A stretch of DNA of 63,019 nucleotides, counting the filler, from Stramenopiles sp. TOSAG23-2 (Eukaryota), in the NCBI GenBank assembly GCA_900128395.1. It is 8 parts of 8 records of this genome, joined end to end, with 100 filler letters (N's around TTAATTAATTAA, not from the genome) between each part and the next. Parts side by side here need not be neighbours in the genome. Positions count along the whole stretch, not along the records: positions 8,845 to 17,548 come from LT650172.1; 7 more parts are not named here. One strand, given 5' to 3'. This document shows, piece after piece, positions 7,108 through 44,244 of the stretch. Every line of letters begins with the position of its first letter. The stretch's first letter is position 1. The translations under genes and the position numbers were made by a program. The notes below the pieces were generated by a model. That model worked only from the letters and a program-made list of their open reading frames with translations. It was not told where the DNA came from and searched no databases.

Positions 7108-7835
7108 CAGGTATGGCACATCATATAAATTATATTACATATATATGTAATATTTTATCAGACAAGCAGGAGTTATGGATAGAAGAAAGTGAAGAGTAAG
7201 AAGATGTAGTGTATTTTCATAATTTTTTACAAGTTCAGGGCAATAATATCAAAGCCTAAAATATTAATAATTCTATGCCATGCGACGAGTAAAATATTTA
7301 ATATATGATATATATGATGGTTCACACACCACATTTATGAAAATGTTAGCAACATGTAATATTAAAATATTGATGATCATTTGAAATATTGAAATATTAC
7401 TGTATATTTTGTATACTGGTAGAGAGAGGATCCTCTCTCACACGCGTGCTCGCCAGCTCGCCCCCGAACCCGAAGCCTGGTGTACATATAAAAAAAAAAT
7501 GTGTGTAATGTTTTGCAAAATAAAAAAAGATAAATATACAGACATACGCTTCACAATATTTGTTTCCACACTTGCTCTCATCATGTGCTTGATTAATACA
7601 TCTCCTTTAAATATATAATAATATGCGGGGAACTTCGTACGAGAAGTATAATGGAAGAATATAGAAAAACCTATCATGCATAGCGCTACTTTTGTGCTTG
7701 TAGAGTATTAGACTGCAGACGTTTAGTATAAAAAAGCTTGAGATGTGGACACTATATTTGAACACTACTTATAATTTTAAAAACGTGTATATATCATATC
7801 AACTCATTTAGAGAAAACATATATATTATCTTTTA

Positions 7836-8109
7836 TTTAATACGGGGGTTCGTGTTCTCTTCTATTTCGAAGATGAAGTAGACGAAGACAAAACAAAGTT
7901 CACAATAATATCAACTTTTTCTAATGCACCTTTGCCAATATCACCACATGCTAATTTTTTTTCTTGTGGTTCTTTAATACGGGGGTTCGTGTTCTCTTCT
8001 ATTTCGAAGATGAAGTAGACGAAGACAAAACAAAGTTCACAATAATATCAACTTTTTCTAATGCACCTTTGCCAATATCACCACATGCTAATTTTTTTTC
8101 TTGTGGTTC
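7836..8109. repeat. Exact 137-bp tandem duplication covering the PPCDC 3' end
   Basis: 7836-7972 is identical to 7973-8109. Confidence 0.9.
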
Positions 8110-8744: not shown

Positions 8745-8844
8745 NNNNNNNNNNNNNNNNNNNNNNNNNNNNNNNNNNNNNNNNNNNNTTAATTAATTAA
8801 NNNNNNNNNNNNNNNNNNNNNNNNNNNNNNNNNNNNNNNNNNNN
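8745..8844. other. Artificial contig spacer (also at 17549-17648, 26347-26446, 35138-35237, 43915-44014, 52685-52784, 61454-61553)
   Basis: Identical N44-TTAATTAATTAA-N44 each time, giving stops in all six frames; contig lengths decrease monotonically. Confidence 0.99.
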
Positions 8845-8921
8845 GTGGTATTGATGATCAAGGAAAAACAGGTGTAGCTTTATTTGGTGTTTTAGGTACT
8901 TTTTTTTATTGGTATTCTGTA

Positions 8922-9281
8922 ATGTTATTATATATAATAGGAGGTGTGGTATTGATCGTGATATCTATTGTAATGTGTATTGTGTTTGGATCGAAACCGA
9001 AACCGAAATCGAGTGTACCAATTAATCAAACGACTACACCAAGTGTGCAAAATAGTCAAGAGCAAAATAGTCAAGAGCAAAATAGTCAAGAGCAAAATAG
9101 TGAACCGGTGGATGGTAGTTGGGGTCCTTGGCGGGCAAAGGGCGAGTGTGACAAGGAGTGTGGTGGTAGACGTATTTTTGAGAGAAGGTGTGATGATCCC
9201 GAGCCAAGTGGGGGTGGGGATTCTTGTTGGGGTGTGAATTCTCAATTGTTGCCTTGTGGTCCTCAGTCGTGTACAAAGTGA
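8922..9281 (+). CDS. Viral membrane-anchored thrombospondin type-1 (TSP1) repeat protein
   Basis: N-terminal TM segment, QNSQE stalk, then VDGSWGPW...CDKECGG...RRCDDPEPSGGGDSC...C...C. Confidence 0.85.
   Translation: MLLYIIGGVVLIVISIVMCIVFGSKPKPKSSVPINQTTTPSVQNSQEQNSQEQNSQEQNSEPVDGSWGPWRAKGECDKECGGRRIFERRCDDPEPSGGGDSCWGVNSQLLPCGPQSCTK
9048..9101 (+). repeat. 15-bp coding tandem repeat caaaatagtcaagag x3.6 (QNSQE)
   Basis: Directly visible. Confidence 0.95.
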
Positions 9282-9324
9282 TGCGCAGGAAAAGTGAAAT
9301 AATTTTATATGTATTATTTCAAGA

Positions 9325-10140
9325 ATGAAAAAAGCAGTACTAGTGGGTATTAATTATTCTAATGATAATTCGGCGCGTTTGAATGGGTGTATTCAGGATA
9401 CACAGAATGTGAGGGATATTTTGATTAGTAAATTTGGGTACAAGCCTAGTGATATAACGATGATTAATGATTTTACGGAAACCAAGCCGACCAAGGATAA
9501 TATTATCAGGGCGTGTTTTGAGATGATTCAGGGTCAGGCTAATAATGACGTTGACCAGTTTTTCTTTCAATATTCTGGTCATGGTGCTCAGGTTCCGGAT
9601 CGTGATAGAGACGAATCTGATAACAAGGACGAGGTTATTGTCCCGATTGATTACAAGACTGCGGGTTTGATAAGTGATGATCTTTTGTTTAATTTGCTAG
9701 TGAAGCCATTAAAGTCGCATCAAAAGTTGACGTGTTTGATTGATGCGTGTAATAGTGGTACGATGTTGGATCTAAAGTATAATATAAAGGCAATGACAAA
9801 ACCGATATCTGGCAAGATATCAAAGCCTTATGATCACAGTGAATGGAATGCTCGTTTGGGTATTGATATTGGTACTCGTGATTCACCAAAGGGTAATGTG
9901 TTGATGATTTCTGGCTGTCAGGATCATGAGCAATCTAATGACGTTAGTATAGGAAAGACGTATCAGGGTATGATGACGTATTGTTTTTTGGATTGTTTAC
10001 GGTCGAATGATTGCAAGATAAAATTAAAGTATCTTGTAAAGGATATAAATTGTCTTTTAGATTTGTATGGATTCAAGAATCAAAACAGTCAATTGTCGGC
10101 TAATAACTATCCTAATTTGGAGGAAATCTTTGAGCCTTGA
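9325..10140 (+). CDS. Metacaspase (peptidase C14), no prodomain
   Basis: KKAVLVGINY, LNGCIQD, YSGHG (catalytic His), DACNSG (catalytic Cys), ISGCQDHEQS. Confidence 0.95.
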   Translation: MKKAVLVGINYSNDNSARLNGCIQDTQNVRDILISKFGYKPSDITMINDFTETKPTKDNIIRACFEMIQGQANNDVDQFFFQYSGHGAQVPDRDRDESDNKDEVIVPIDYKTAGLISDDLLFNLLVKPLKSHQKLTCLIDACNSGTMLDLKYNIKAMTKPISGKISKPYDHSEWNARLGIDIGTRDSPKGNVLMISGCQDHEQSNDVSIGKTYQGMMTYCFLDCLRSNDCKIKLKYLVKDINCLLDLYGFKNQNSQLSANNYPNLEEIFEP

Positions 10141-10260
10141 CCGACTCGTTTATTTAAGTAGAAACCATTTATCAAGGTTGACACACGTTATTGTCTCTAT
10201 CAAAAACTAAGTTCCCGGAGATTCACTTACATTTTTTTATATGACAACTACAAGAGTACA

Positions 10261-13200
10261 ATGAGTTATAATTTCAAGGATAATTTAGCTATTGACAATG
10301 ATCGCTATTTAAAGTGGTTTAATACGTCTAATGTGAAGCAGAATATTATAGGTTTGGATACGTCAAATGATTTGACTATAAATAATGGTGGTGGTTCGGT
10401 ATCTTTGAATCCTACGGGTTCAAGTCATACTTTTATAAATAGTGGTAATACTGGTGTGACGTTGATTGATAATAAACTTGGTGTGGGTTATAATACGACT
10501 GATAATACTAATTCGACATTGACTATGGCAAGTAGTTCATTTTTGTCTGTGAATACAGTATTTGGTAGTAATGATGGGTATCTTGGTATTACAGGTTCCA
10601 ACGAGTTGTCTCATTCTGCGGGTTCAAGTGTGATATCTTATGGTCAGAATCACGGGTCATTACCTGGTCATTTAGAGTATTATACTGGTACGAGTGGTGA
10701 GCATTCATTTTACACTGGTGCTGATACAAAGCGTGCTCAAATTTTGTCTGATGGTACTACTAATTTCATGCCTAATGGGAGTACGATTAGGTTATCTATA
10801 GAGGATACCATTTCAACGTTTGGGAACCAAGTTCATATTACGGATACTACGGAAGCAGTTAATGGTAGTACTGGTGCGTTGGTAATTAATGGTGGTTTGG
10901 GTGTGTTGGGAAATACTGTTATTGAGGGTACTCTAAGTATTAATAGTGTTATCGGAAATTTGGAGTTTAATAGTACTCGTCCTTCACTCAGTTACAGTTC
11001 AGGTAGTATGACTGTGGAGGGTGGTTTTGGAATACAGAGTACGGTGGATGCAGCGAGTGTGACTAGTGGTGGTGGGTTATCTGTGGCTGGTGGTTTTGCG
11101 TTGGGAAAGAAGGCTATTATTGGTGGTGAAGTAACAATAGAGTCTAGTACGGTGTCTACTAATTCTCAGACGGGTTCTTTGGTTGTATATGGGGGTGTGG
11201 GGTTAAACAAGACTGTGTATCATAAATCGGTGGCTCCTCATGTTAATTTTAGTCCATTGGTGACTGGTAACGAGTCTAGTATGCATTTTTATTCAAACAA
11301 TGATTTTACAGAGACATCTGGGACTGGTGGTGGATGGCACGTTGGTAATGGTGCGGTGAGTGTGGGGAGTGGTAATTTTAGTATAGGTCATATAACTAAT
11401 CCGAGACTTACGTTTCATGCTGATGGAAAAACAGTACTGTCTACGAATACTGGTTCACAAGTGTCTGGAGCATTAGAGGGGTTGACATTGACTACTGACA
11501 ATAGTACGGTATTTGCTGCGAATACTGATATTACGAATGTTAATCGACAATTTAATGTGTATAATGATAGTACAACGAATGATACATTTACTGCGCATTC
11601 GTTTCAGTCAGCGGCGGGTGGTACAGCAGATATAAAACACGTGGGGAATTCTACGAGTACAAGTCGTAAATTGGTGACTACACTAGACAATGTGGACATT
11701 GTTTCATTAGATTACTCTGGGATGACTGTCTTATCTACGACTTTGGTGGGAACAACAGTGAATTCTGTGTCTACCGTTGGTGGTGCATTGAATGTGGCAG
11801 GTGACCTAGTTCTAGGTGCATCCAAAACTATCCATATAGCACAGGGAGGCGTAGCGGCACCTACATTTACAAATAGGAGTGTAGGAACTAAAATAGTGTT
11901 GTATCCTGATATAGGTGCTGCCAGTGTAGATTTTGCAATAGGTATTGACGGTGGAACTCTGTGGCAAAGTGTACCTCTTTCAGCACATTTTTTCAACTGG
12001 TACGCAGGAACGACGAGTGTGATGACGTTGTCAGGTACTGGGAATATAACGTTATCTGGTACAGTGGACGGTCGTGACGTGGCTGCTGACGGTTTGACGA
12101 TAGACAATTTAAATACAACTATTGGTTTATCAGCTTTGAGTTCAGTGGAAGTGGATCAACTTGAAAATATAGACTCTGTGACTATATCAAATACTCAATG
12201 GGGTTACCTAGGGTCTTTAGATCAATCTTTATCTGTTGGAAGTAATCCTACGTTTGGGAATGTGATAGTAACTGGTACTGTGGACGGTCGTGATATATCG
12301 ATTGACGGTGGTTTATTAGATACTCTTTATACAACTATTGGTTTGAGTGCGTTAACAAGTGGTGAAGTAGATCAATTAGAAAACATTGATTCAGTGACGA
12401 TATCAAATTCCCAATGGGGATATCTGGGAGCGTTGGATCAAGCGCTATCTACAACAAACGGTGTGACATTTAACAGTGTGATCATTGATGGTACAAGTAC
12501 GGAAGCTTTACTAGTAAGAAAGGACGGAGACGTAGTCGACGGTGACGTATTTACAGTGGATACGACGAATACAAGAGTAAATATAGGTTCAGGAACTGCG
12601 AATCACACAACAAAGTTAAGTTTGTATGGTACTGCTAGTAGTGTTAATGGTCCTCATTGGGCTGCAACAACTACTGTGGACGTTTATCCAGTGTTTCAAA
12701 ATTTGAATCAAAATCATGACAATATATCATTGAATTTTGATATGTATTATGACGGTGTGAGTAATAAGAGTAGTGATCCCGGGAGTAATTTCAGGATATG
12801 GAAATTTGCTGACGCTTTAGGATTCTATTATGATAGTGGTGTGGCTGCAGGTAGTACAATGGTTACAAACAAGGTAGGTATGTCTATGAGTAATACTGGT
12901 GTGGTATCGTTTGAGCAAGGTATAATAGTGGACAAGTCTGGAACAGAGGCGTTACTCGTAAGAAAGGACACGGACGGTGGGGACGTTTTTGTGGTAGATA
13001 CAACAAATGAGATTGTGTGTGTGGTAGCAACGGCTGAATCAACAAGTGTAACAACGGGTGCATTCAAGGTATCAGGTGGTGTGGGTATATCAGGCTCGTT
13101 ATATGTGGGTGGTACATTGCATAGTGATGCATTATTCGAGTTGGCGAGTATTACGTTAGATAGTACGACTCCGAGTAGTAATTTAAGTACGGGTTCTTTG

Positions 13201-13902
13201 GTGACTCTGGGTGGTATTACTATAAACAAGACGAGTGACTCTGTGAGTTTGACCGAGGGTGGTTCATTAACGAGTGCTGGTGGTGCGAGTATAGCCAAGA
13301 GTGTATTTATTGGTGGTAATTTGGATGTATCAGGTACGAGTAACGAGTTGGGTGCGATGCAAATGTTGAATAATGACACTGGTGTTAGTTATATAACGGC
13401 GGCGGCATCTAGAACTAGTGGTCAGTATCAGTCAATATACATTACTGGTTACGACAAGACTCCGATTGTTGCCGAGTTTAATGCGACGGCTACGAGTTCT
13501 AGTTTGAGTACTGGTACACTAGTGGTACATAATGGTGGTGTTGGGATTAATTTTACGGACGATGCAGTTAGTATAACGAGTGGTGGTAGTATAACGAGTG
13601 GCGGTGGTGCGAGTATTGGTAAGCAATTGTTTGTTGGTGGGAATACCCAGATTGGTGATAATACTGTGACGCCTCAGCAATCATTGACTATAGGTACTGA
13701 AGGTTTTGGCACAAACAAGGATCATGGTATTAGAGTGTCTGTGAATGATGCTACGACTACGAGTCACACTAATTACAGGTACATTGATATGCGCTTGATA
13801 TCTAATGGTGCAAGTTCTTATAGGGGTGCACTTTTGGGTACGTTGGGTGGTGGAGTGGCAACGGAACATGAGTTTATTACGATGAATCAAACGGGTACCT
13901 AA
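10261..13902 (+). CDS. Large Gly/Ser/Thr-rich virion fibre/adhesin-like repeat protein, probably 3'-truncated
   Basis: Repeated GALVxxGGxG motifs, a duplicated ~70-aa GTVDGRD...QWGYLG unit and duplicated EALLVRKD units. The stop lies inside the 55-bp inverted junction. Confidence 0.8.
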   Translation: MSYNFKDNLAIDNDRYLKWFNTSNVKQNIIGLDTSNDLTINNGGGSVSLNPTGSSHTFINSGNTGVTLIDNKLGVGYNTTDNTNSTLTMASSSFLSVNTVFGSNDGYLGITGSNELSHSAGSSVISYGQNHGSLPGHLEYYTGTSGEHSFYTGADTKRAQILSDGTTNFMPNGSTIRLSIEDTISTFGNQVHITDTTEAVNGSTGALVINGGLGVLGNTVIEGTLSINSVIGNLEFNSTRPSLSYSSGSMTVEGGFGIQSTVDAASVTSGGGLSVAGGFALGKKAIIGGEVTIESSTVSTNSQTGSLVVYGGVGLNKTVYHKSVAPHVNFSPLVTGNESSMHFYSNNDFTETSGTGGGWHVGNGAVSVGSGNFSIGHITNPRLTFHADGKTVLSTNTGSQVSGALEGLTLTTDNSTVFAANTDITNVNRQFNVYNDSTTNDTFTAHSFQSAAGGTADIKHVGNSTSTSRKLVTTLDNVDIVSLDYSGMTVLSTTLVGTTVNSVSTVGGALNVAGDLVLGASKTIHIAQGGVAAPTFTNRSVGTKIVLYPDIGAASVDFAIGIDGGTLWQSVPLSAHFFNWYAGTTSVMTLSGTGNITLSGTVDGRDVAADGLTIDNLNTTIGLSALSSVEVDQLENIDSVTISNTQWGYLGSLDQSLSVGSNPTFGNVIVTGTVDGRDISIDGGLLDTLYTTIGLSALTSGEVDQLENIDSVTISNSQWGYLGALDQALSTTNGVTFNSVIIDGTSTEALLVRKDGDVVDGDVFTVDTTNTRVNIGSGTANHTTKLSLYGTASSVNGPHWAATTTVDVYPVFQNLNQNHDNISLNFDMYYDGVSNKSSDPGSNFRIWKFADALGFYYDSGVAAGSTMVTNKVGMSMSNTGVVSFEQGIIVDKSGTEALLVRKDTDGGDVFVVDTTNEIVCVVATAESTSVTTGAFKVSGGVGISGSLYVGGTLHSDALFELASITLDSTTPSSNLSTGSLVTLGGITINKTSDSVSLTEGGSLTSAGGASIAKSVFIGGNLDVSGTSNELGAMQMLNNDTGVSYITAAASRTSGQYQSIYITGYDKTPIVAEFNATATSSSLSTGTLVVHNGGVGINFTDDAVSITSGGSITSGGGASIGKQLFVGGNTQIGDNTVTPQQSLTIGTEGFGTNKDHGIRVSVNDATTTSHTNYRYIDMRLISNGASSYRGALLGTLGGGVATEHEFITMNQTGT

Positions 13903-13916
13903 AACACCAAATAAAG

Positions 13917-14738
13917 CTACACCTGTTTTTCCTTGATCATCAATACCACACGAAACACACCCAAATCACCAATATTCCATTCCAAAATCAATGGTTTATC
14001 ATTCTCAATGTAAATCTTCATATATGGTGACATACTCGTCGCCTTGATAAAGTAATTCAAATAATGTAACGAAAAATCACCCTTTATAATAGCATCCGAA
14101 GACTGAGTATATGTAATACGCTTCACATTATCATCAACTATCTCATTCTCTGATGGAGCTATCTGACGAAGAGTAATCTCACTCGACAACTTTGTTTTAT
14201 CACCATGATTCGTAAATACCAATTGTTGAGAATAAGACGTAATCTCAATACGATCCGAACCAAACCCAGACATCTCTTTGATAATCTCCTGAAACGTCTT
14301 GCTAGGTAAACTAATACAATGATCAGACTGAATATCACTCAACTTGAAAGGCTTGTCATCCAAAAATAACACCGGAAGATTATACTTTTTAATCTTGCCC
14401 TGAGAACTATTCTCCAATGATACACAAAGATGCGTAGGAGAATCTTGCTCCAAAGACAACGTAATACTGTCCTTTACATTCACATTCTTGATCAATTTAT
14501 AAAACTCACTTACCTCAATACCTATAATATACTTGCTCTTGCAGAAAAAAGACTCGAAATTCTCAGCACCCAAAAACGTATACGTAATCCACATGTCTGA
14601 CGAATCCTGCTTCGTAATCCTAATACCCTCGGGAGTAAACACAAAATTCAAATCCTTGATATACCCCTTGACAGTCTCGAAAAGATACTTGAAAAAAATA
14701 CTCTTTATCGTTCTCGCCTCAAACACATTAGAAGACAT
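13917..14738 (-). CDS. PCNA: Proliferating cell nuclear antigen (sliding clamp), NCLDV type
   Basis: FEARTIKSIFFKYLFE...DLNFVFTPEGIRI, FESFFC, LPSKTFQEIIKEM, FSLHYLNYFIKAT, ENDKPLILEWNIGDLG. Confidence 0.93.
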   Translation of the reverse strand: MSSNVFEARTIKSIFFKYLFETVKGYIKDLNFVFTPEGIRITKQDSSDMWITYTFLGAENFESFFCKSKYIIGIEVSEFYKLIKNVNVKDSITLSLEQDSPTHLCVSLENSSQGKIKKYNLPVLFLDDKPFKLSDIQSDHCISLPSKTFQEIIKEMSGFGSDRIEITSYSQQLVFTNHGDKTKLSSEITLRQIAPSENEIVDDNVKRITYTQSSDAIIKGDFSLHYLNYFIKATSMSPYMKIYIENDKPLILEWNIGDLGVFRVVLMIKEKQV

Positions 14739-14784
14739 TTAATAATAAACCCCAGTTTCGTTTAAATATCAATTTTCTACCCTT

Positions 14785-15477
14785 TTAAAAATTACCACCA
14801 AGCAACACTTGGGTCGTACTACGGTAATTCTTTTGACCCTTGATAGAATCATTCACTTGATGATCAATAAGAACCGGTTGAGTACTCGCATCCCTAAGAT
14901 AATCAATATACTGCTGCAATTGACTCGCAATCCTAGGAACAGTCTCGTTAATCACTAGTTCATTCAGTCTACGAGTCTCACTCACAGTATCATCCAGAAT
15001 ACGGTCCTTGTCTTCCCTCGATTTAGCTAGCTCCAATGAATTCGTATGTCTACCATACTGCAAATACATCGCACGCATCACAATCAATAATTCCTGACGC
15101 GATTGCTTATCAATCACTTGACCCATTTGCTTAAACACCGTAAAACGAATCAAATCCTGAAGATCATTCACATTACGCTCAGAAAAATACAAATAACTCA
15201 AAGGATTCTCAATATGAATATTACGCATCACCGCATTCGTATTTGATGCATTACCACTTTGCTTCACTTGAGTATCAGTCAATTGCCACATCCCAGGTGA
15301 CTTTAAATCCGAAACATCCACATTCGGAACACGAAACGTACGATCACTCTGTACACGACGAAGATCACTCTTGTTACCCGGAGTCGTATTTATATTCTCA
15401 AACAATTGAGGATGAAACGCAATATTAGGTATCCCATTTGTAGTATCTATTTGTTTATTAACATTGTAATGAGACAT
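14785..15477 (-). CDS. NCLDV conserved protein resembling the minor capsid P8 central region/DUF5761 family
   Basis: LSYLYFSERNVNDLQDLIRFTV...IDKQSRQELLIVMRAMYLQY...LNELVI...YIDYLRDAS; recognised by eye. Confidence 0.75.
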   Translation of the reverse strand: MSHYNVNKQIDTTNGIPNIAFHPQLFENINTTPGNKSDLRRVQSDRTFRVPNVDVSDLKSPGMWQLTDTQVKQSGNASNTNAVMRNIHIENPLSYLYFSERNVNDLQDLIRFTVFKQMGQVIDKQSRQELLIVMRAMYLQYGRHTNSLELAKSREDKDRILDDTVSETRRLNELVINETVPRIASQLQQYIDYLRDASTQPVLIDHQVNDSIKGQKNYRSTTQVLLGGNF

Positions 15478-15512
15478 TATTAATCATTACATATAAAAAA
15501 AATATCGGTTTA

Positions 15513-16292
15513 TCAAAAATCACCCAACTTTATTGCCCTTAATTCTTGTATACTCATACGCTTCTTCTCACCTGACAACGTACCATGTAGTATACTTTTT
15601 ACATTATCCGATAAATCATCATCAATTAGTAAACTATCCAACCCATCATATATATATTGATTCCACTGTTTATCCTCTGGTTGATCCCAAAGACACTTGT
15701 CTGTAAACAAAGTATAAAACATCAGACCCAAACACCACATATCAACCTTTTTAGGCACAACAAAAAAACCATCATATTGTTCTGGTGACCAACACCCCAA
15801 AGTACCAAACAATGTATTCGTTAAAGAATCAGCATTCCGAGCTGAACCAAAATCTATTAACCTTAACTCATTATTCTTGTTGACCAACACATTCTCAAGC
15901 TTGATATCACAATGCGCAATACCATTTTCGTGCAAATACTCGATTACCACCAGTAATTGCTCCCAAATACCTAATTTATTCACCATTACACCATTTGATA
16001 TTATATCAAACAAATCTTGCGATTCAAAATACTCCATACACATCACATTATTACTAAAATCAACATCAAACACAGACAATATACTCGAATGATCAAGCAC
16101 CTTGCCCATAGTATATTCCAAAGTCAATTCCTCACGCGATTTAACCTTTTTAACAACGTAATTCTTTTCAAAATTAGTTACCACACATACCTTGTTATGC
16201 TCATTCCCCTCAAATTTCTTTACACACTTGTATTTCGAGTCGTTAATCGTAGGATCAGATATCATTTTATACGTAAACTTCATCCCAATCAT
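15513..16292 (-). CDS. Ser/Thr protein kinase (viral)
   Basis: VVKK, HCDIKLEN, IDFG, GTLGCWSPE, DMWCLG. Confidence 0.93.
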   Translation of the reverse strand: MIGMKFTYKMISDPTINDSKYKCVKKFEGNEHNKVCVVTNFEKNYVVKKVKSREELTLEYTMGKVLDHSSILSVFDVDFSNNVMCMEYFESQDLFDIISNGVMVNKLGIWEQLLVVIEYLHENGIAHCDIKLENVLVNKNNELRLIDFGSARNADSLTNTLFGTLGCWSPEQYDGFFVVPKKVDMWCLGLMFYTLFTDKCLWDQPEDKQWNQYIYDGLDSLLIDDDLSDNVKSILHGTLSGEKKRMSIQELRAIKLGDF

Positions 16293-16310
16293 TGAAAATC
16301 ATCCTAAATA

Positions 16311-16502
16311 TTATTTATCAATTTTTACCAACAAAATACAAACCATCATTATAATCCAACGCATATCCAACAAAGTCTTTTTATACCCCAAAGAATCCAT
16401 ACCAATACCCCACTCGCGAAATTCACCATTACCCCTATACGTCAAACTAGGCTTCAGATAATGTATAATCAAAATTATACATACAAGCAAAACAACTTTC
16501 AT
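16311..16502 (-). CDS. Small two-TM viral membrane protein
   Basis: Two hydrophobic segments around KPSLTYRGNGEFREWGIG...KKTLL, resembling a small conserved NCLDV protein; fits the tight gene packing. Confidence 0.65.
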   Translation of the reverse strand: MKVVLLVCIILIIHYLKPSLTYRGNGEFREWGIGMDSLGYKKTLLDMRWIIMMVCILLVKIDK

Positions 16503-16532
16503 TAAACTTACCAGCTAAAATGTTTTTGTAAA

Positions 16533-16982
16533 TTACGTAAACAAAAAATCAACATAATCAAATATCGTCCTAGGATTAGATCTCTGATACTCTTCAATTA
16601 TAGATATACACTTGTTCATAATAGACATGTCACAATTCTCCAACACAATCTCACCCACCTTTGCATTCACAATACACACAGTATCAGACACATTCACTAT
16701 ATTCTTAATCAACAAAAACTTGTCCAACTCCATTATATGATGATTATTAACATTGATGTAATGCCTCGATTGAATCTTGTACAACATAAAATGAAGCTTC
16801 AACTTTTTATTCTCAATGTACTTGAATATTAAATAATTTTGAGTCCCCTGCTTATTCTCTGAATTTATACCAATATACTCTTTTACATATACCTTGTTCT
16901 TTGAATACTCACCAGAGTTATCTGACTCTACAACTTCAAATATATTCTGTTTCTTTGATATCACAGAAAAAGAATCACTCAT
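16533..16982 (-). CDS. Hypothetical viral protein
   Basis: ATG-initiated ORF filling the space in a co-directional gene run. Confidence 0.7.
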   Translation of the reverse strand: MSDSFSVISKKQNIFEVVESDNSGEYSKNKVYVKEYIGINSENKQGTQNYLIFKYIENKKLKLHFMLYKIQSRHYINVNNHHIMELDKFLLIKNIVNVSDTVCIVNAKVGEIVLENCDMSIMNKCISIIEEYQRSNPRTIFDYVDFLFT

Positions 16983-17002
16983 TCTACAATTAACCCCTAA
17001 AA

Positions 17003-17350
17003 TTATTTCTTTTTTCTCTTTACCTTGGACTTGGCTTTGTATTCATTACCCACCTCAATATATTCCACAGACCTTACATCAGGAAATCTATGCAACAACT
17101 TTTGTGTCTCAATTTCAGTCTTTGAACACGTCCTTGGACGATACCTAATATAAATCTGATTCGGCTCCAAAAAACGCACCTTGTAATCACTTACTTGTAA
17201 CACACTCTTTACATACTCAAAACACCCCGATACACTATAATCATAATCCAAAGAAGACATTGGTATTTCTATAGTCGCATGCGTCTCCTCTAAAAGTACC
17301 TTTTTACAACGCTCCAAAATTACACAATACCCCTGTGGTACTTTACTCAT
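17003..17350 (-). CDS. NCLDV DUF5759-like protein
   Basis: ILERC...EIP...Y...CFEYVKSVLQVSDYKVRFLEPNQIYIRY pattern; likely start MSKVPQ at 17350. Confidence 0.6.
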   Translation of the reverse strand: MSKVPQGYCVILERCKKVLLEETHATIEIPMSSLDYDYSVSGCFEYVKSVLQVSDYKVRFLEPNQIYIRYRPRTCSKTEIETQKLLHRFPDVRSVEYIEVGNEYKAKSKVKRKKK

Positions 17351-17385
17351 AATAATTACCAGTAAAATAATAAACACAAACACAC

Positions 17386-17548
17386 TTACTTCAAAATATT
17401 GTCAAACAATTCAGCAAAAGAACGCCGCACTGGATGCTCTTCTTGGTCTTGATCTTGATCTTGATCTTCGTCTTGATCGACTTGGTTCACCCATGGTTGG
17501 TTATTCATCATTTCCAGACAACGAGCATACAACTGCATAACCAATGGT
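17386..17548 (-). CDS. 3' end of a viral gene cut by the contig end
   Basis: Open frame PLVMQLYARCLEMMNNQPWVNQVDQDEDQDQDQDQEEHPVRRSFAELFDNILK*. Confidence 0.55.
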
Positions 17549-17975
17549 NNNNNNNNNNNNNNNNNNNNNNNNNNNNNNNNNNNNNNNNNNNNTTAATTAA
17601 TTAANNNNNNNNNNNNNNNNNNNNNNNNNNNNNNNNNNNNNNNNNNNNATATGATGATGTAATAATAAAATATATAGTAATAATAATAATAATTTCAATA
17701 TATCACCCCGCACCCCCCATTTTTTTCATTTCTGCAACATCTTCTTTTCATGCTCTTATAGGCTAAGGAGTTTACAAACAATACCCTTGTTTTTGAGTTC
17801 AAGTCCCTAACCCGTGATATTAATATAGGAAGAGTGTATTGTGTCACTCTTTTGTGGGAAGACTATAAAGAAACATATTAATATTAGACGACACCTACGA
17901 GACTATCAATTATCCTTTTTTGGGACCAATAATTATTACATTTCACAAGGAAAATTCGTCTTATACCGTTATCAT

Positions 17976-18419: not shown

Positions 18420-18584
18420 AAATTACTATCCTAATATCACTAGCCATGCTATTTACCTATTATAATAGCACTGTGTTATCATTAACCACATACGGTACTT
18501 GCCTTACGTTTGCCATTTTTTGTTAACACTGGATTTTCGAAAAGCATAGACACAGCATTGTAGAACAGGTGAATAGAATTGCGA

Positions 18585-18773
18585 TTATAAATTTAAGGTG
18601 CCTTTAAATACCTGTTTTATTGCCATGGCACCCTCGTCTCCAATGCTATTCCCTTGTAAATTAATCCTTTTCAACGAGCCTCGTTGAAAAGGATTAATTT
18701 ACAAGGGAATAGCATTGGCGCAGAAGGTGCCAAGGCAATAAAAATGGTATTTAAAGGGACATTGGATTTATGA
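18585..18773. repeat. 189-bp palindrome made of two divergently oriented LRR C-terminal coding fragments
   Basis: Perfect 39-bp arms 18640-18678 and 18680-18718. + strand 18681-18773 = SLKRINLQGNSIGAEGAKAIKMVFKGTLDL*; - strand 18677-18585 = SLKRINLQGNSIGDEGAMAIKQVFKGTLNL*. Confidence 0.9.
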
Positions 18774-19229
18774 TAACAATATCCCCCGCAGTCCCACCTG
18801 ATAAGTATAGACTACACTACTAAATCCCCAAGGTTTTTTAAGCTATCTGTTGTGACTGTGTATACTAATTAGTAAACAAATAAATAATTTCCATGTGGAT
18901 TAGCATGGGGTTAGCCCCCCTATGTCAAAAAAAGTTCCATGTGGTGATGTTCCTATATGAAATTGGTAATGGACAAAGATAAAATGCGGGTTTTTGGAAG
19001 TGTTATGGAGATACGATGGATAGTGTGCAAGTGTGTGAGATGGGCGCAAGGTGGTGTGGATGGTTGGATGGACGAATATGTGCGATGGGTGTTGTTCGCA
19101 CACCTAATGTAGTCGGTTTTCGTCCATCTAAAAAAAAACTTATTTGAAGTATAATATGGTTATTCATTTTATGTATATATATAAATTTGGTATTTTTTAA
19201 AAATGGATATTGTATTGTTTATGTTAATG

Positions 19230-19859
19230 TTATAAAAAGGAACCGGCTGGTTTTTGTTTGTTTGCATGCAAATATATTTCTGTGGTGTTTTTGCTGGCGT
19301 GTCCAAGGAATTGTGATACTTCACTGATACCAGCACCATTTGCAAAGGCATCGGATGCGACGGTATGCCTAAACATATGAGGGGTTATTTTGGATCGTCC
19401 TCCGTTGAGTTCATCGGTCATTCGTCCTTTGCAAATTTTTTGTATCCAATTTTGTCCTGTTCGTGTGGATATTGGGCATCGTGGATCTTGTCCTGGAAAG
19501 ACATAGTCTTGTTTTCTTTCACATCGAGCAAGGTGTTCCAAATAATACCTTCCACGTGTACCGATGACAACGGTCCGTGTTTTGTTGCCCTTGCCCAATG
19601 TAGTAACGGTCAACTCAGTGGTTTCCTTTGGGGGTTGGTTCTTTCGTCGTCGAAAGGCTTGACGCTTTGGGATGCTACCGGCGAATTCATTGTGCTTGGT
19701 TTCCAACACAATATCTTTGTACCGAATCTTACATACCTCGAAGAGACGGAGACCGCCAAAGTACAACAAGGCAACGAACTTCTGTTTTTTTCCAGAGGTT
19801 TCCGCCAAGATAGATTCCATCTGGTCGTCCGGGATGACGTGCACATGTGTGGTGCGCAC
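19230..19859 (-). CDS. Tyrosine recombinase/integrase, XerC/D-like catalytic domain (ATG start possibly at 19820)
   Basis: Full catalytic set: LLYFGGLR(R), GKGNK(K), PHMFRH(H-x-x-R), LGH(H), TTEIY(Y). Visibly more GC-rich than neighbouring host genes. Confidence 0.93.
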   Translation of the reverse strand: MRTTHVHVIPDDQMESILAETSGKKQKFVALLYFGGLRLFEVCKIRYKDIVLETKHNEFAGSIPKRQAFRRRKNQPPKETTELTVTTLGKGNKTRTVVIGTRGRYYLEHLARCERKQDYVFPGQDPRCPISTRTGQNWIQKICKGRMTDELNGGRSKITPHMFRHTVASDAFANGAGISEVSQFLGHASKNTTEIYLHANKQKPAGSFL

Positions 19860-22113: not shown

Positions 22114-23532
22114 ATGACATCAACAACAACATTCAAAGCAACATGTACACCTGAGGAAGTTGGATTATCGACCATTGGATTAAAAGAAGCATTTGAAAAA
22201 GCAATGGAATTAGAACATGTATTATCTGGTCAACCGTTATCTGGTGGTACAATGTTTGTTGCAAGACATGGTCAAGTATGTTTTGTAGATAGTTTTGGTA
22301 TGAAAGATGTTAGTCAACCAGAAACAAAAATGACACCTGATACATTATTTAATATAGCAAGTATGACGAAAACAATTACATCCATTGGTATAATGTTATT
22401 ATACCAAGATAAATTATTAAATCTTGATGATGATGTTGCAAAAACATTTCCATGTATGGCAAAGGAAAATTTAAAAGTTGGTAAAATAGATGGAACAACG
22501 GAGCCATGTGAACGCCCAATTACTATAAGACATTTAATGACTCATACAGCAGGATTTAGTTATGGAATGTTATTTCAAGGGGGCTTAAAAAATCATGCTA
22601 AAACGGAAGCATTTAGTTTTAAATTTGGTTATAACAAACCAGAAGATTTTGCCAATACAACACTTGCATTTCAACCTGGCACGCAATTTAGATATAGCCA
22701 AGCAACAAATTTACTTGGTTTAATCATTGAAAAAATATCTGGTATATCATTAGAAACATTTTTTCAAAAACGTATTTTCCAACCACTTGGAATGATTGAA
22801 ACATCATTTAATGTTCAATCCAATTTATCAAAATTAAGTATTGAACAATATGGTACAAATGAACGTAGTGAAAAAGTAAATGTTATAAAGGTATTTCATG
22901 AAATTGAACGTGGTTCACCAAATGTTGAAAGTTTATCGTTAACAAATTTATCAAATCTAGGGCGAAGTCCAGAATTAGGACATGGTGGTTTATTTTCATC
23001 ACCATCAGATTGGTGGAAACTATGTCAAATGTTATTAAATCGTGGATATCCAATTATGGATGTATCTACATATTCAACCATGGTAGAACCAAATACACCA
23101 GAGTTAAATGATCATGGTGGATTTATTTCACATAGAACTGATAATCCAGATACTGGTGGTCATTTCTTATTTGCAAATTTTTTTCCAGGAGGTATTGCAC
23201 ATAATTTGACTGGCGAATGTGTTATTTCTACAAATAATATCGCAGGTGCATCAATTGGTACATTTGGTTGGGAAGGGATATTTACAACGAAATATACAAT
23301 TGATGTACAGGAAGATATGTGTATATGTTTTTTCTCAAATACAGCACCATGTTGGAGATATAATTTTAAAGGTGAAATTTTACCATTGGTATATAGGAGT
23401 TTACTAGAGCCAAACGTACCACATTATGAAGCATTCACAAATGCAAAATTTGCACCAACAGATACGAAATGGACACTAGGTGATTTGATACCAAGTCAAC
23501 ATGATATTAAAAAAACTTCATCCAAGTTGTAA
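22114..23532 (+). CDS. Beta-lactamase-family serine hydrolase with peroxisomal PTS1 (SKL)
   Basis: FNIASMTK (SxxK), IRHLMTHTAG, FQPGTQFRYS, GHGGLFS, FGWEG; C-terminal SKL. Confidence 0.92.
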   Translation: MTSTTTFKATCTPEEVGLSTIGLKEAFEKAMELEHVLSGQPLSGGTMFVARHGQVCFVDSFGMKDVSQPETKMTPDTLFNIASMTKTITSIGIMLLYQDKLLNLDDDVAKTFPCMAKENLKVGKIDGTTEPCERPITIRHLMTHTAGFSYGMLFQGGLKNHAKTEAFSFKFGYNKPEDFANTTLAFQPGTQFRYSQATNLLGLIIEKISGISLETFFQKRIFQPLGMIETSFNVQSNLSKLSIEQYGTNERSEKVNVIKVFHEIERGSPNVESLSLTNLSNLGRSPELGHGGLFSSPSDWWKLCQMLLNRGYPIMDVSTYSTMVEPNTPELNDHGGFISHRTDNPDTGGHFLFANFFPGGIAHNLTGECVISTNNIAGASIGTFGWEGIFTTKYTIDVQEDMCICFFSNTAPCWRYNFKGEILPLVYRSLLEPNVPHYEAFTNAKFAPTDTKWTLGDLIPSQHDIKKTSSKL

Positions 23533-30464: not shown

Positions 30465-33400
30465 CTATTGATTTGTTCGTTTCTCACCTTGAGACAACTC
30501 AGTTGTCATCGGTGGAGCAGTATCAAATAAATAATTCATCGCACTTTCCCATGATCGTCTTTGGGTTTCTCCATTAAATTCACTTTTTCGTTCAAAACCA
30601 CCATTTCTACCTTGTGGCATAGGAGCATCTTCCGTTTTTTCATCACGTAATTTCATTAAAGCCGCATCCGGTCTTCCATGGGCATATTCACCGCTGCCAG
30701 TACGCATTTCATGTGCTATTGGATACAATTTCGCTGCAAGTCGAAAACATTCTTTCATACATAAATCCATGTCATCTGGCTTTGGATTTCCAATTCCATG
30801 CATTTCCATTAATTGTTTATCTTTATCGCATTGTAACAAACATTTTAGATGAGATTCAGCTATTCCATTGCCACCGAACGATCGTTTTGGACCACTAGGT
30901 ACCAATGGTTCTGCACCATCTTCACGATCTGCGGACAAAACTTGCACATCTTTTCCAATGGCAAATTTCTTTGCCAAAGACATCGGTTGAGATCCAATTC
31001 CATTATCTTCAATTATCGGATTTTGTTCATCATAGCCATCAATTTTTTTTCTCGGGAGTTCGGATGACGCCTCCCCTTGGTGAAAATGGGTCGAGCTATC
31101 TTTGTCTCCTAATGGCATGCCGGCATGTTTTAAAATATCTGTTAAAGAATATCCATACGGCGAGGATGCTTTTTTATTTTGTTGCCTCAGCATATTGTTA
31201 CCTAATAATTTTCTTCCCCCACGCAACGAAGCTTTGCTTTTACTATCACTATTTTTACTATCACTTTCGCTTTTCTTATTTGAATGTAATATACGATCGA
31301 AAAGGGAATCAGATTTTTGTTGATCCTGTGTTTTCATCATTTCTGGAAATACAGTTTTAAAACTATGTTTTTCATTTGATTGTTTCGAAGCCTTTGCTTC
31401 AAGATGTTTGTTCTCACTATTGCTCGGTTTCATCTCAGATTCTTTCTTTACTTTTGTTTCTGCTGCTAACTTTTTGTTGTTATTATTAGCATTAGTTTTC
31501 TCAATAGCATGTTCTGCATTGGCTATGCTTTCTTTCTTCGTGACAACAGGTGATTTTTTAAGCTTCTCAGTATTTGTTTTCTCTTTGAAATGGATTAATT
31601 GATGGGCATGGATTGGTGGGATAGGTGCAAAATGACTATTGTGTGGAGGTGCTGCTGGGTGTACATGATTGACTGGCGCAGTATGTGGGTGTGATGGGTG
31701 CGACGCTTGATAATGATGTACCACTGATGGATGCGCAGAATGAACATTTAAAGGAGCATGATGTAAATGCATTGCTCCTGGTCTATATCGACTCATAAAG
31801 GCATCTTTTGTAGGTTCTTTGCCCGTAAGCATTGATTCTAACAATGGCGGAACATCTCCCAATGCTGGGTGAACAACGTCAGGGTGCACACTACTAGGTG
31901 CTACAGCATGCGTTGGATATAACAATGGCAATTCTGCACTATTTTCAGGAACAAATGGCATATGCTTTTGCGCTTGTAAATCAGACTTTGGATTGTCCAT
32001 GTGTAAACCATCTTGAGAAGCAGTGCCAGGGTACATCAGAGGATCGCACATTTTCAATGCTCCTTTCACTATTTCTGCTGCTTTTTCCTCTTTTGCATTT
32101 GCCATAACTGCCGTAATACAAGCTTGGTGCGACACTGCGGTTGCACCGTATGGGGATTGATGGCCAGGCATAGCAAATGCGCCGCACAAATTCAATTTTC
32201 TTGCCAATTCATCCTTTGTAGTTTCCTCAGTCACGGTCGAGAGTGTCACGGAGTAACATGCTTGATGTGATAATGGCGTTGACTGACCGCTCACACCAGC
32301 TGCTGCTGCTGCTTGTAAAACTGGAATACCAGACAAGGCAGCTGCATTTACTGCATTTGAACCAACAGCAGCTAATTTACCTGAGTTCAGATATGCATGG
32401 CCTAAAATAGGTGAGCATTTTGACGTTATATCACTGACAACTTGTGGCGGTGTCTTTCCATCAGTTCCTTTTACGGCACTTGTTAGACATGACTGATATG
32501 CAGTAGCTGTTGGATTAATACCGGCTAAATGGTTGCACGAGTTGATTCCCAAGATAATATCCTCAGGCTTGGAATTTGGTCCAATGCCTGAAAATGCTGT
32601 CGATATACATGAACTGTGTGCGCTAGCTTCATAAGCTCCATGGTTATAGAGACCCCCAGACCAAAGAACCCCATCGCATCCCGATAGCAAGGCTTTTACT
32701 TCCCCAACACTTGAGGCTGCTTGCCCTTGATTTCTTAACATATTTTGAATACAGGTTTGGNNNNNNNNNNNNNNNNNNNNNNNNNCTTAACATATTTTGA
32801 ATACACGTTTGGTGTGCAGCTAATCCAGGATTTCCTCCAACAAGTGGTGCACATGCCAACAATCTCGTAGGCAATGCTTCAATATTTTCGTCGGTCAGCT
32901 CGGTAAGAGCCGTTTGATAACATGCTTGATGCGACTGCCAATGGCCATTGTACGGCTGCCCTTGTCCAGCTGGACCGGCTTGATGCAAAAAGCTTTCACA
33001 CGTATCCAATTGTGTAATTAATTCTTTTTGATCACTGCTTTTTGCTGCCTTTGCAATTTTTGAAGTTATGCAAGATTGATGCGCATGGCCAGTTGCACAT
33101 TTTGCAATTTCAGCCGCTATTTGAGACGTCGTTGTTTTCTCATTAACGGAAGCTATTGCTAATTTGTAACAGTGGTAACCATTATTAGCAGCTGTAGTTT
33201 CAAACGTATGAATCGGTATGCCATGGGTTACACCAGGTGCAAACAAAGGAACACCAGATACTAATGGGCTCCCTACTTTCACGCCACCACTTGCACTTGC
33301 TGCTGGCGTACCTGCTATTGGATGCGATTGTGCTGCGCAGGATACTACCATCAGAGCATCGCATGTGCTTAAACCTTTTTTCACATCTTCCATAGATTTA

Positions 33401-35137
33401 GCATCTTTTATTGCATCACCTCCTAAAACTTTCATGACACAAACTTGATGAGCCGCTGAATGTGGGGTTTGATACGAAGCTGCACCACAGGCACCAAATT
33501 TTTGTGGCACCTCTTCAGGCTTTGTTTCCTTAGTTAAACTCATTAAAGCTTGATAATAACACCAACAATGTGTTCCATGCATATATGGATTAACACCGTA
33601 CATTATACCTGCCAATGGATGTGCCGGATGTACCGGGAATGGATGTACCGGGAATGGATGTACCGGGAATGGATGTGGCAATACTCCTGGAACATATGGA
33701 TGTGGCAATACTCCTGGAACATATGGATGTGGCAATACTCCTGGATGCACATGACCGCCATGGGCGAAACTTGAATACAAATATTGATCACATGCAGCCA
33801 TTTGACTTTTCAATTTGTCTGGATCATCCTTAGCACTATTTAATGCTTGCATAACGCACGATTGGTGATGCATAGCAGATGGATTCCCAGCTGCAAGGGC
33901 ACCACATGCTGTGAATTTTGCTTGCAATTCTTCTGGTTTACCTCCACCACTACTAAGGGAGCTCATTGCTGAACTATAACATGCCATGTGTGCAATTGGT
34001 CCAGGCATTCCGTATGCGTTCCACCCATGTGCAGTATGGCCTAATCCAGCATATCCTTGTATTCCATACATTAAAAATGAATCGCATTGTCGTATCAAAG
34101 TTTTCGTATCTTCTTCTAATGGTAATTCTGGGTCAGTTGCGCTTAGTGTCGATATGACACCGGTCACACAAGAATGATGCGGCATGGCTGGCGATCCAAA
34201 GCCACCACTTTGACAGCCTTGAAATTTGTTATTAAAAGCAAGGACGGTCATTTCCTTATCTGCAGTTGCCATGATAGAATTATAACATGCAGCATGTTCA
34301 CCAGCATATAGACCTGGATGAACTTTTGCTAAACGTGCAGTTGTTGCTGCTTGTGCCGCTACATTTGGGTTTTCTCCAGCAAAAATTAATGGATCGCACG
34401 TTTTCAACATCGTGCGTATTGCGCAGGGAGCATTGTCGCATTCTTTTGCCGCTGCTGGTGGTTGATCTGCTTTCGATAGAACATTCATAACACCCATCAC
34501 ACACGCTTGATGCGGTAAAGATAAGTCAGATATTGATCCAAAATTGTTACACGAAAGTAGTTGACTAGCTGCTTGTTTTGTAGTGACCTCTTTTTTCCAA
34601 CCGGAAATGGTCATCTCGTAGCAAGACTCGTGTGCAAAAGTAGTGCCGTAATGACCACCATTACCACCACTAGTTGTTCCTAACATTCCTAACCATGCAT
34701 TATGATTATATCTAATGTTCGCTAATGAACCTCCAGATATAAAAGTTGTTAATAAAGTTGATATCGCACCTTGTGGATTCTTCACACCACAGCCTTCTAA
34801 GCAACCTTCTCCTAATGCTTTTCTATTTGATTCTTTTCCTGCCAAGTTAGCTTTGACTGATGCACCGATCAAACATTGCTCTGCGCAGATGACAGCGCCA
34901 TGTGCACTACCACCGGCCGCACCTGCATAGTCATGCATATTTGATCCAGGAGCTGGCATATATGGACTATTGACACCTGGAAAACTATTTCTCATTTCGT
35001 CACTACTTGGTTGGCCACTAGTTGCAAATGGTGTGCTAAATGCTTTTGAATATTGGTTCACAGATTCTACTGGTGGCCCACCACCAACCGGTGGAGATTC
35101 CCATGGTTGAATCTTCCATCCCGGGGATGGTGGAATC
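30465..35137 (-). CDS. Single >1500-aa Cys/His/Ala-rich repeat protein, 5'-truncated, split by a scaffold gap (32761-32785)
   Basis: The 27-nt flanks of the gap overlap (32734-32760 ~ 32786-32812). Merging them gives AHQTCIQNML-RNQGQAASS in frame. The frame is open to the contig end. About 16 HxxC...C units. Confidence 0.85.
33617..33746 (-). repeat. Coding tandem repeats (PGVLPHPYV x~3, HPFPV x3)
   Basis: 27-bp and 15-bp tandem units visible in the DNA. Confidence 0.9.
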
Positions 35138-36007
35138 NNNNNNNNNNNNNNNNNNNNNNNNNNNNNNNNNNNNNNNNNNNNTTAATTAATTAANNNNNNN
35201 NNNNNNNNNNNNNNNNNNNNNNNNNNNNNNNNNNNNNGGTACTTCTTACATTATCAAGCATGAAATTAGGCCTCTGTCGACCAACGGGAGACCCTCCTCT
35301 AGTTAAATATAAAATACCTAGAAGGTATATATTATAAGTAAAAATATGTGCATATGTGGATATCACTTATTCTAACTTATACCAGCCGCAGATATTGGAT
35401 AATTAGTAAAATCCAAAAATGGCCAATGTTAATTTGGATGAAAATATCAGAATATCCGATTTTATGAATTATTCAATGTTTACCTATTAAATATACACAT
35501 AAATTGGTATACTAAGCCTACCACCTGGCTAAGGCTGGTATAATATATAGCTACGCGTATGCACCTATTTATCCTCTCTGGTAGAAGACGACTGGTGGTA
35601 GATCGTGCGAAGATCCAAAATCTTATAATAAAATCGCGTGCTTTAGCTTATGATGATGCATTTAACTTCCTTTCGTCGTCTATGTATGCTGCTATACCAG
35701 GTCTGTCCGATCTATCTAATAAAAATTAGACATAATAATATTATATAAAATAGATTTAGATATAGATGTTATATACAGTTATAGATACAGATACAAGATT
35801 AGCACCTATTAATTGGTCTTTTCCTACATTAAAACTATTCCAATAGTTATATTCAAAAATACCTTTTGCTTGATAATACCATTTTCATCAAGTTTATTGT
35901 AATTACCAGATTTAAGATTAGTTGGCTCAAAATTACTTATATTGATCGATTTAAGTCTATATGATAAAAAAATAGAACGTCAACTTTCATAATCATTTCA
36001 TACTATC

Positions 36008-43515: not shown

Positions 43516-44244
43516 TTTATATTAGATGTCTATATATATTTTGTATTCCCAATATAATCTCTTTGTTACTGCTTCAACACTATTTCATTTATAAAGGAAA
43601 AAGATGAAGAAAAGGGAAGAAGTGATGTACTGGGAAAAGAAGAAGAAACCATCCTCTCCTTTTGCATTTGTAGCATTCATTACTAAAAAAGAAATATACA
43701 AAATAATTGCTTTTTATTTTTTGCTACTATTATTTATTTCGCTTTTTCTTCTTTCTTCGGCGTGGGGAGCACTGGACTTTTTATTAAAGGTTGCTACCAG
43801 CTACCAGGTATAGACTTTGCAGCGTACGTAATTGTACTTGTTAGAATACGCACATACCAGGCTAAATTACTGGCGCAGTATTGGCAATGGCAATGGCAAA
43901 CCAAGCCAAACGTGNNNNNNNNNNNNNNNNNNNNNNNNNNNNNNNNNNNNNNNNNNNNTTAATTAATTAANNNNNNNNNNNNNNNNNNNNNNNNNNNNNN
44001 NNNNNNNNNNNNNNTGTATTTACATTAGAACCAAATATAAATATGTATAAATGGTCAGAAAAAAATTCAATTTTTTGGTTTGTGGATTTGTCTTTTGAAA
44101 TATTATGAATTAAAAATTGGTGTACAAAATATTAACGTACTAAGACGAAGAGACAAAAGATCACTACTTATACATATATACATATATACATATATACATA
44201 TATACACAAAACATACACAGGTATATAAAAAAATAAAAACAACA

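Follow-up and report, generated by a model that had tools for sequence, protein, structure and literature searches.

A giant-virus contig of the Mimivirus AB-566-O17 population in a stramenopile assembly, with a probable inverted mis-join and a proposed but unsupported host link

Giant endogenous viral elements (GEVEs) are known from protist and algal genomes. For most marine giant viruses the host is unknown, and there are few ways to propose one, the detection of a virus together with an individual cell being among them. A choanoflagellate virus placed in the family IM_08 (PMC8575486) is such a virus–cell pair, obtained by single-cell genomics. In pairs of this kind, the viral contigs lie in one cell's amplified genome, and the evidence consists of near-complete viral genomes and repeated cells. 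The deposited virus closest to the DNA described here is the marine giant virus Mimivirus AB-566-O17. Wilson et al. 2017 reportedly worked with single sorted virus particles and highlighted one viral metacaspase. In the review PMC10583209, the discovery of metacaspases in marine Imitervirales and Algavirales is credited to that study and their role is called unclear. AB-566-O17 is named among the Mimiviridae taxa in a report on a harbor metagenome. A limited literature search, covering sources available in part, found no published host link for AB-566-O17, and Aylward et al. 2021 do not have the name AB-566 in their supplements. Here, we compare with these systems a contig at positions 8845–17548 (LT650172.1) of a 63-kb window—i.e., the whole stretch of 63,019 nucleotides (nt) that was analyzed—from the assembly of Stramenopiles sp. 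TOSAG23-2 (GCA_900128395.1), which an earlier note, made from the sequence alone, had read as giant-virus DNA and as a candidate virus–host link. The window consists of several separate contigs in falling order of length with seven 100-nt linkers (N44-TTAATTAATTAA-N44) between them, and 8845–17548 is one complete, free-standing contig of 8,704 nt with a linker on either side.

We have high confidence that this contig is a genome fragment of a giant virus that is exogenous and uncultured, falls in the order Imitervirales, belongs to the AB-566-O17 population, and was sequenced together with a eukaryotic cell. Its minor capsid protein P8 was identical at 227 of 230 residues to SAGO17_0093 of Mimivirus AB-566-O17, and its metacaspase at 270 of 271 to the protein deposited as "putative viral metacaspase 1 [Mimivirus AB-566-O17]". 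The exact sequences of its PCNA and its Ser/Thr kinase were found on a 7,639-nt NCBI contig, the same size as the AB-566-O17 contig, and all four proteins, 99–100% identical, were traced to one contig of that length. Only 4 of the ~1,033 residues compared differed, and all four changes were radical (A>E twice, S>R and F>I). On this comparison of proteins, the contig and the deposited virus belong to one species-level population; the two records differ in that the sequence here is longer and lies within a eukaryote assembly. Together with the Pfam matches of P8 and PCNA and the viral relatives described below, these results bear out the view that the DNA is that of a giant virus, not of the host.

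The organization of the contig is consistent with this origin. It holds eight complete open reading frames (ORFs) and a ninth that is cut at the right end, 93% of it is coding, and no split ORFs were found in it, so that its description as densely packed and undecayed stood. Its GC content was 0.377, compared to 0.305–0.357 in the large neighboring contigs, and GC skew on the coding strand ranged from 0.24 to 0.48 (mean 0.37), whereas 12 ORFs on the remaining contigs of the window gave −0.05 to 0.28 (mean 0.13). The coding strand had been called rich in both G and T; the G-richness was evident, whereas the T-over-A skew, at −0.03 to +0.10, was marginal.

We then compared the individual genes with profiles and solved structures (Table 1). 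The PCNA of the type found in nucleocytoplasmic large DNA viruses and the P8-like (DUF5761) protein that had been proposed were both recovered with Pfam. Solved cellular PCNAs aligned with the former over residues 4–267 at E ~1e-24, with only about 89–93 bits, and P8 of PBCV-1 (PDB 6ncl) matched the latter at E 0.002. A third proposal, that of a DUF5759-like protein, stood in part: the ORF of 126 amino acids (aa) gave no direct match in Pfam, including the PF19063 model, even at E ≤ 10, but aligned to the syntenic PF19063 (DUF5759) ORFs of relatives with an hhalign probability of 91.8% (E 7.5e-7). The metacaspase and the kinase had gone unmentioned, as had the probable mis-join at 13894/13895 that is considered below. 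The metacaspase sequence contains YSGHG and DACNSG, of which SGHG and DACNSG are presumably the motifs of the catalytic His–Cys dyad. The conserved 149-aa protein (unk149) had no match in Pfam or PHROG. A likeness of the Cys-rich module of the 119-aa protein to thrombospondin type-1 repeats, noticed by eye, received no support from Pfam and was set aside.

The description of the largest gene as fiber-like was also supported, by its homology to proteins of relatives that bear a Peptidase_S74 chaperone at their C terminus. Residues 2–375 shared 42–47% identity with 25 distinct homologous ORFs (35 loci had a fiber match), and the chaperone was present in 19 of 22 syntenic fiber homologs. In the window ORF itself, which is cut upstream of the expected site, no Peptidase_S74 match was obtained even at E ≤ 10. 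Searches with the fiber gave a single PHROG match ("tail protein", 0.005) and no match among PDB sequences. The ORF also contains repeats, with two 72-aa units 216 nt apart at 12039–12344 (TVDGRD...LENIDSVTISN.QWGYLG) and, at 12499–12985, a further pair of units spaced by 444 nt (TEALLVRKD..GDVF.VDTTN), the latter unit occurring in many copies in relatives such as P0206, a protein match discussed further on.

To place the virus, we searched metagenomes and IMG/VR by alignment-based scans and obtained 160 loci anchored on P8, with certain contigs present in both collections. All 66 P8 protein matches carried PF19065. Within 10 kb of P8 in these loci, tblastn detected PCNA and unk149 in 41 each, the kinase in 38, the fiber N terminus in 35, and the 126-aa ORF in 5; the metacaspase was near P8 in just 2, unlike in the window, and the 119-aa protein had a homolog in none. 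The order in relatives was TopoII ... DUF5759–NMT–unk149 ... RING–kinase–P8 ... fiber (opposite strand) ... PCNA–DUF5767, with the kinase directly upstream of P8 and the D5 and SNF2 helicases close by. A single-protein scan of IMG/VR found no DNA of close relatives, and the alignment-based scans found only P8 identities of ≤45%; a closer clade, with 58–74% identity, is known as proteins. For PCNA, a word-based search returned only eight relatives, all of them metagenome proteins with 44–92% identity.

In a metagenome clade with 44–88% identity, the proteins for metacaspase, PCNA, and P8 had contig sizes in common, namely 6,389, 8,057, 4,805, and 29,716 nt (P0003/P0082/P0199, P0008/P0088, P0203/P0085, and P0204/P0090). 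The three genes are thus probably linked in that clade too, which would make the metacaspase a stable trait there, though not among the IM_18 relatives.

Whereas the earlier note had left the virus between Imitervirales and Algavirales and had held that it could not be assigned further, the relatives point to Imitervirales, with IM_18 as the nearest classified family, and lend no support to Algavirales. In the taxonomy table that Aylward et al. 2021 give as supplement 1 (PMC8575486), 17 of 24 names for genomes of giant viruses that were assembled from metagenomes (GVMAGs) were listed, and 17 of these 17 were Imitervirales. The four GVMAGs with full-length P8 matches, at 37–43% identity (GVMAG-M-3300017788-3, GVMAG-M-3300017788-49, GVMAG-M-3300027798-19, and GVMAG-S-1035082-103), all belonged to family IM_18, genus g200, while weaker matches, confined to the center of the protein, fell in IM_12, IM_13, IM_14, and IM_01. 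Like the window, the g200 genomes have a DUF5759/unk149/kinase/P8/fiber/PCNA neighborhood; unlike it, they have NMT and RING genes interspersed and the fiber on the opposite strand, and in the rows of the table that were consulted they come from fresh water. A marker phylogeny, which had been envisaged for this contig, was obtained for P8 by a quick maximum-likelihood search with 36 rows. The window, its close clade, IM_18, and the syntenic loci grouped apart from IM_01/12/13/14 with a Shimodaira–Hasegawa-like approximate likelihood ratio (SH-aLRT) of 99, and the window's clade stood outside the IM_18 group (97). Several points limit how precisely the virus can be placed: the lineage is drawn from one short-protein tree, synteny, and the depositors' name; MCP, PolB, A32, VLTF3, and the D5 primase–helicase are not on the 8.7-kb contig; and the four differences from AB-566-O17, instead of reflecting strain variation, could have arisen as errors in one record or the other. 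Within Imitervirales, we read the lineage as a sister of IM_18 or as a divergent member of that family.

The new point here is the structure of the contig, the virus itself being already known. The 55 nt at 8845–8899 are the exact reverse complement of 13895–13949, and the match ends at 55. Directly downstream of 8845–8899 on the plus strand come a promoter-like T-run and then the small (119-aa) ORF, and at the other copy the 55-mer contributes one codon and the stop to the end of the fiber ORF. Another contig of the window (44015/47193) also repeats its own first 55 nt, which suggests that the assembler's k was 55 and that such ends are graph junctions. Two joins thus compete, namely the assembled one, in which fiber and PCNA converge 14 nt apart, and one in which PCNA, the small ORF, the metacaspase, and the fiber follow each other on one strand. 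In our view the contig is most likely an inverted chimera mis-joined at 13894/13895.

What favors the chimera is the position at which fiber homology ends. We searched the last 364 residues of the fiber against 1.84 billion representatives, which gave 1,320 matches, of which the best 150 were listed. The best of these, P0206 (2,071 aa), shared 65% identity with the fiber over residues 3–379 and 64% over residues 924–1212. Its alignment stops at fiber residue 1212, the codon straddling 13894|13895, and P0206 continues for 768 more residues, to a Peptidase_S74 domain. Among the listed matches, 12 had a best stretch touching the end of the query, and all 12 extended 305–768 aa further, 11 of them with S74. 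To within a codon, homology stops where the 55-mer begins, which would be unexpected at a native gene end. That the contig is instead colinear as assembled, with a 1,213-codon fiber gene converging on PCNA and an artefactual 55-nt copy at its left end, seems quite unlikely to us, since the matching segment is internal in 12 of 12 longer relatives, although some observations speak for it. A contig assembled from run X1, one of the sequencing runs introduced below, corresponds to 13077–16590, bridges the assembled fiber/PCNA join with 0 differences, and at a depth of 12.7—the highest seen—represents the majority path; it was assembled independently, though possibly from the same data. Distant IM_18 relatives likewise have the fiber opposite in strand to P8 and PCNA, as assembled here and unlike the inferred order, and 3 of 22 relatives' fiber homologs had no detectable S74. 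These observations count against the chimera without, in our view, outweighing the coincidence of the two boundaries.

If the contig is chimeric, 8845–8899 probably marks the alternative, native join of PCNA to the next gene, and the native order on one strand would be the DUF5759-like gene, unk149, kinase, P8, PCNA, the membrane/Cys-rich protein gene, metacaspase, and fiber, the last running past the contig. Snap-back template switches occur in multiple-displacement amplification, and the palindrome at the breakpoint (Table 1) would fit such a switch. The strand flip at 13.9 kb is most likely an artefact of assembly or amplification and not a feature of gene organization, and the switch in GC skew at the same place would then be an artefact too. 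An inverted chimera of this kind cuts the fiber gene and mimics a convergent gene pair with a skew switch, and arguments from gene order or skew in such assemblies need a check for mis-joins.

We then considered how viral DNA came to be in a eukaryote-labeled assembly. Three sequencing runs were compared, X1, X2 (same organism label, other sample), and X3 (other label). X1 contained 0.91 of the contig's sampled words. Its 13 aligned pieces were all at least 99% alike with 0 differing letters, and agreed with the window also at the residues that differ from AB-566-O17; thus, X1 is of the same type as the window, which may derive from it. Word depth on the viral contig in X1 was 2–13. X2 and X3 showed next to none of the contig's words and no pieces could be placed, which is not proof of absence. 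The virus–host link proposed in the earlier note has therefore not been borne out: it depends on the sharing of one assembly, and the evidence joining cell and virus is physical co-sampling, once, and no more.

Several routes could have brought the two together, and infection, ingestion, attachment, co-sorting, and carry-over are indistinguishable from these data. We lean toward an association without infection, in which a virion was ingested by, stuck to, or co-sorted with the cell, or DNA was carried over between libraries. The same virus type has been deposited under its own virus name, independent of any cell; it appears in one run of three at low depth; and its contig stands on its own and bears a probable inverted chimera of the amplification type. 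The four residue differences speak against this account only as far as carry-over of the exact deposited DNA is concerned. By the same token they show that the contig is not simply AB-566-O17 DNA, and together with the co-occurrence of viral and eukaryotic contigs in one assembly and the complete agreement with X1 they are what would commend a true host link, whereby the assembly's eukaryotic cell was infected when sampled and the contig reveals which eukaryote the AB-566-O17 lineage infects. We regard such a link as unlikely, given that the contig was seen in a single run and at low word depth, and that the window contains no other viral contig. Compared to published virus–cell pairs, the evidence is of the same kind; however, it amounts to one 8.7-kb contig in one run. 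A shade more doubtful still is the wider proposal that this eukaryote is the natural host of a metacaspase-carrying AB-566-O17 lineage forming a marine sister of the uncultivated IM_18. If true, that lineage would have a host assigned to it for the first time, and there would be a system for studying the role of a virus-encoded metacaspase; confirmation would tie a deposited orphan virus and a much-cited viral metacaspase to a particular protist, and for now it is a lead only.

That the contig is instead a GEVE fragment inserted in a eukaryotic chromosome we consider hardly credible. As in GEVEs, giant-virus genes stand in a eukaryotic assembly, and a tyrosine recombinase ORF lies 1.7 kb off in the window, but on a different contig. 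Here, however, there is no junction, no decay, and no introns; both ends are linkers rather than host DNA, the ORFs are dense and intact, the composition is unlike that of the host contigs, the proteins are nearly identical to a viral record, and X2, despite its shared organism label, shows next to none of the contig (again no proof of absence). The absence of a host junction, to which the earlier note had pointed, is correct but true by construction, since linkers flank the contig, and for the same reason its neighbors in the window are uninformative on linkage. The preference for an exogenous virus over an old endogenous element nonetheless stood, and an exogenous virus is very likely.

Upstream sequences were examined for promoter-like motifs. 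In Mimivirus and CroV, AAAATTGA is known as a motif of early promoters that lies upstream of genes. Only two copies occur in the viral contig, both on the gene strand (Table 1). About 2% of oriented positions fall 20–60 nt upstream of starts, and by hand arithmetic the odds of both copies being so placed are ~1 in 1,000 to 1 in 100. Against a promoter role stand the count, which is at chance level (14 in the window vs. 14.9 expected), and the relatives, of which just 2 of 27 had exact AAAATTGA upstream of PCNA; most had variants of AAAATTGA, followed by ATTTAAAA. It is thus the placement and not the count that departs from chance. A T-run (TTTTTTTAT) was found 20–30 nt upstream of the ATG of P8, the fiber, and the small ORF, and also in relatives' fiber genes. 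The two kinds of element may distinguish early (AAAATTGA) from late (T-run) genes.

Taken together, the genes suggest a division of roles. The PCNA clamp and the Ser/Thr kinase, each with AAAATTGA 25–30 nt before its ATG, would serve replication and early functions. P8, as a minor capsid protein, and the long fiber would be virion parts, the fiber comprising a conserved N-terminal part that may anchor it in the capsid and a repeat-rich shaft; in relatives it ends in a self-cleaving Peptidase_S74 chaperone. The metacaspase is of a kind thought to let such viruses steer the proteolysis of host cell death. The other genes would encode a small membrane/Cys-rich protein and two conserved proteins without assigned function.

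Table 1. Features on and beside the viral contig, with positions counted along the window
Feature	Position	Strand	Details
Artificial linker N44-TTAATTAATTAA-N44	8745..8844	.	Contig separator
55-nt reverse-complement copy of 13895–13949	8845..8899	+	Last 10 PCNA codons, stop, and 22 nt
119-aa protein	8922..9281	+	N-terminal hydrophobic helix; low-complexity linker, QEQNS x3; C-terminal Cys-rich module
Metacaspase (Peptidase_C14), 271 aa, without prodomain	9325..10140	+	Pfam PF00656, 2e-27, residues 2–257
Fiber gene, 5' 1,212 codons of a longer gene	10261..13902	+	Conserved N-terminal ~375 aa, then repeats
Breakpoint, probable inverted chimeric join	13894..13895	.	Palindrome GGTACC spans breakpoint
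PCNA sliding clamp, 273 aa	13917..14738	-	Pfam PCNA_N 2.7e-14, PCNA_C 1.2e-16
AAAATTGA	14769..14776	-	30 nt upstream of PCNA ATG; mimivirid early-promoter-like
Minor capsid protein P8 (P8_CR, PF19065, formerly DUF5761), 230 aa	14785..15477	-	Pfam 2.2e-24, cut-off 26.9 bits
Ser/Thr protein kinase, 259 aa	15513..16292	-	Pfam 7.4e-33
AAAATTGA within AAAAATTGA	16318..16325	-	25 nt upstream of kinase ATG
unk149, conserved 149-aa protein	16533..16982	-	Homologs at syntenic place in relatives
DUF5759-like protein, 126 aa from GTG	17003..17383	-	115 aa from first ATG (17350)
Gene 3' end, 53 codons and stop	17386..17548	-	Acidic DQ-repeat tail; cut by contig end
Artificial linker	17549..17648	.	Contig separator

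The remaining window contigs encode eukaryotic proteins of an ordinary kind, among them a myotubularin phosphatase, a RUN-RhoGAP-ELMO-TLDc protein, a mitochondrial carrier, an acyl-CoA dehydrogenase, an Upf1-like helicase, and a cytochrome b561. Two look-ups in a protein atlas placed the cellular lineage no more closely than Eukaryota. When 26 of their ORFs were compared with the 160 giant-virus loci, zero relatives were found, and no second viral contig was seen within the window. A tRNA scan and an Rfam search at gathering thresholds gave no match, and scans for sigma-70 promoter-like and terminator-like signals stayed at chance level.

Several features of these neighboring contigs were recorded in passing. 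The tyrosine recombinase ORF (Phage_integrase, 1.2e-24) lies at 19230–19859 on the minus strand of a eukaryotic contig and not on the viral one; ~450 nt from it is a 101-nt inverted repeat (18578–18780, 1-nt spacer, 86% complementary), and the two may form a Crypton- or DIRS-like element. At 7833–8106, a direct tandem duplication of 137 nt per unit, with 99% identity, extends across the 3' end of a flavoprotein gene (Hal3/PPC-decarboxylase-like), either as a genuine tandem repeat or as an assembly duplication. On the minus strand at 30465–35181, a 25-N gap is entered from either side by long frames, which measure 773 and 845 aa between stops and are probably a single very large gene; they contain repeated ~70-aa "HQAC...C" modules and His/Pro-rich stretches, have a GC content of 0.36–0.44, and gave zero Pfam matches and zero relatives among the viral loci. 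A beta-lactamase-family gene at 53093–54620 on the plus strand is divided into two ORFs covering profile positions 5–109 and 168–312, as would be expected if an intron or small exon separated them or if a frameshift had occurred; a complete paralog is present at 22114–23532. Finally, 44015–44069 is identical to 47193–47247 in the same orientation, so that the opening 55 nt of that contig recur internally, probably as an assembler k-mer overlap or a mis-join within the RUN-RhoGAP-ELMO-TLDc gene.

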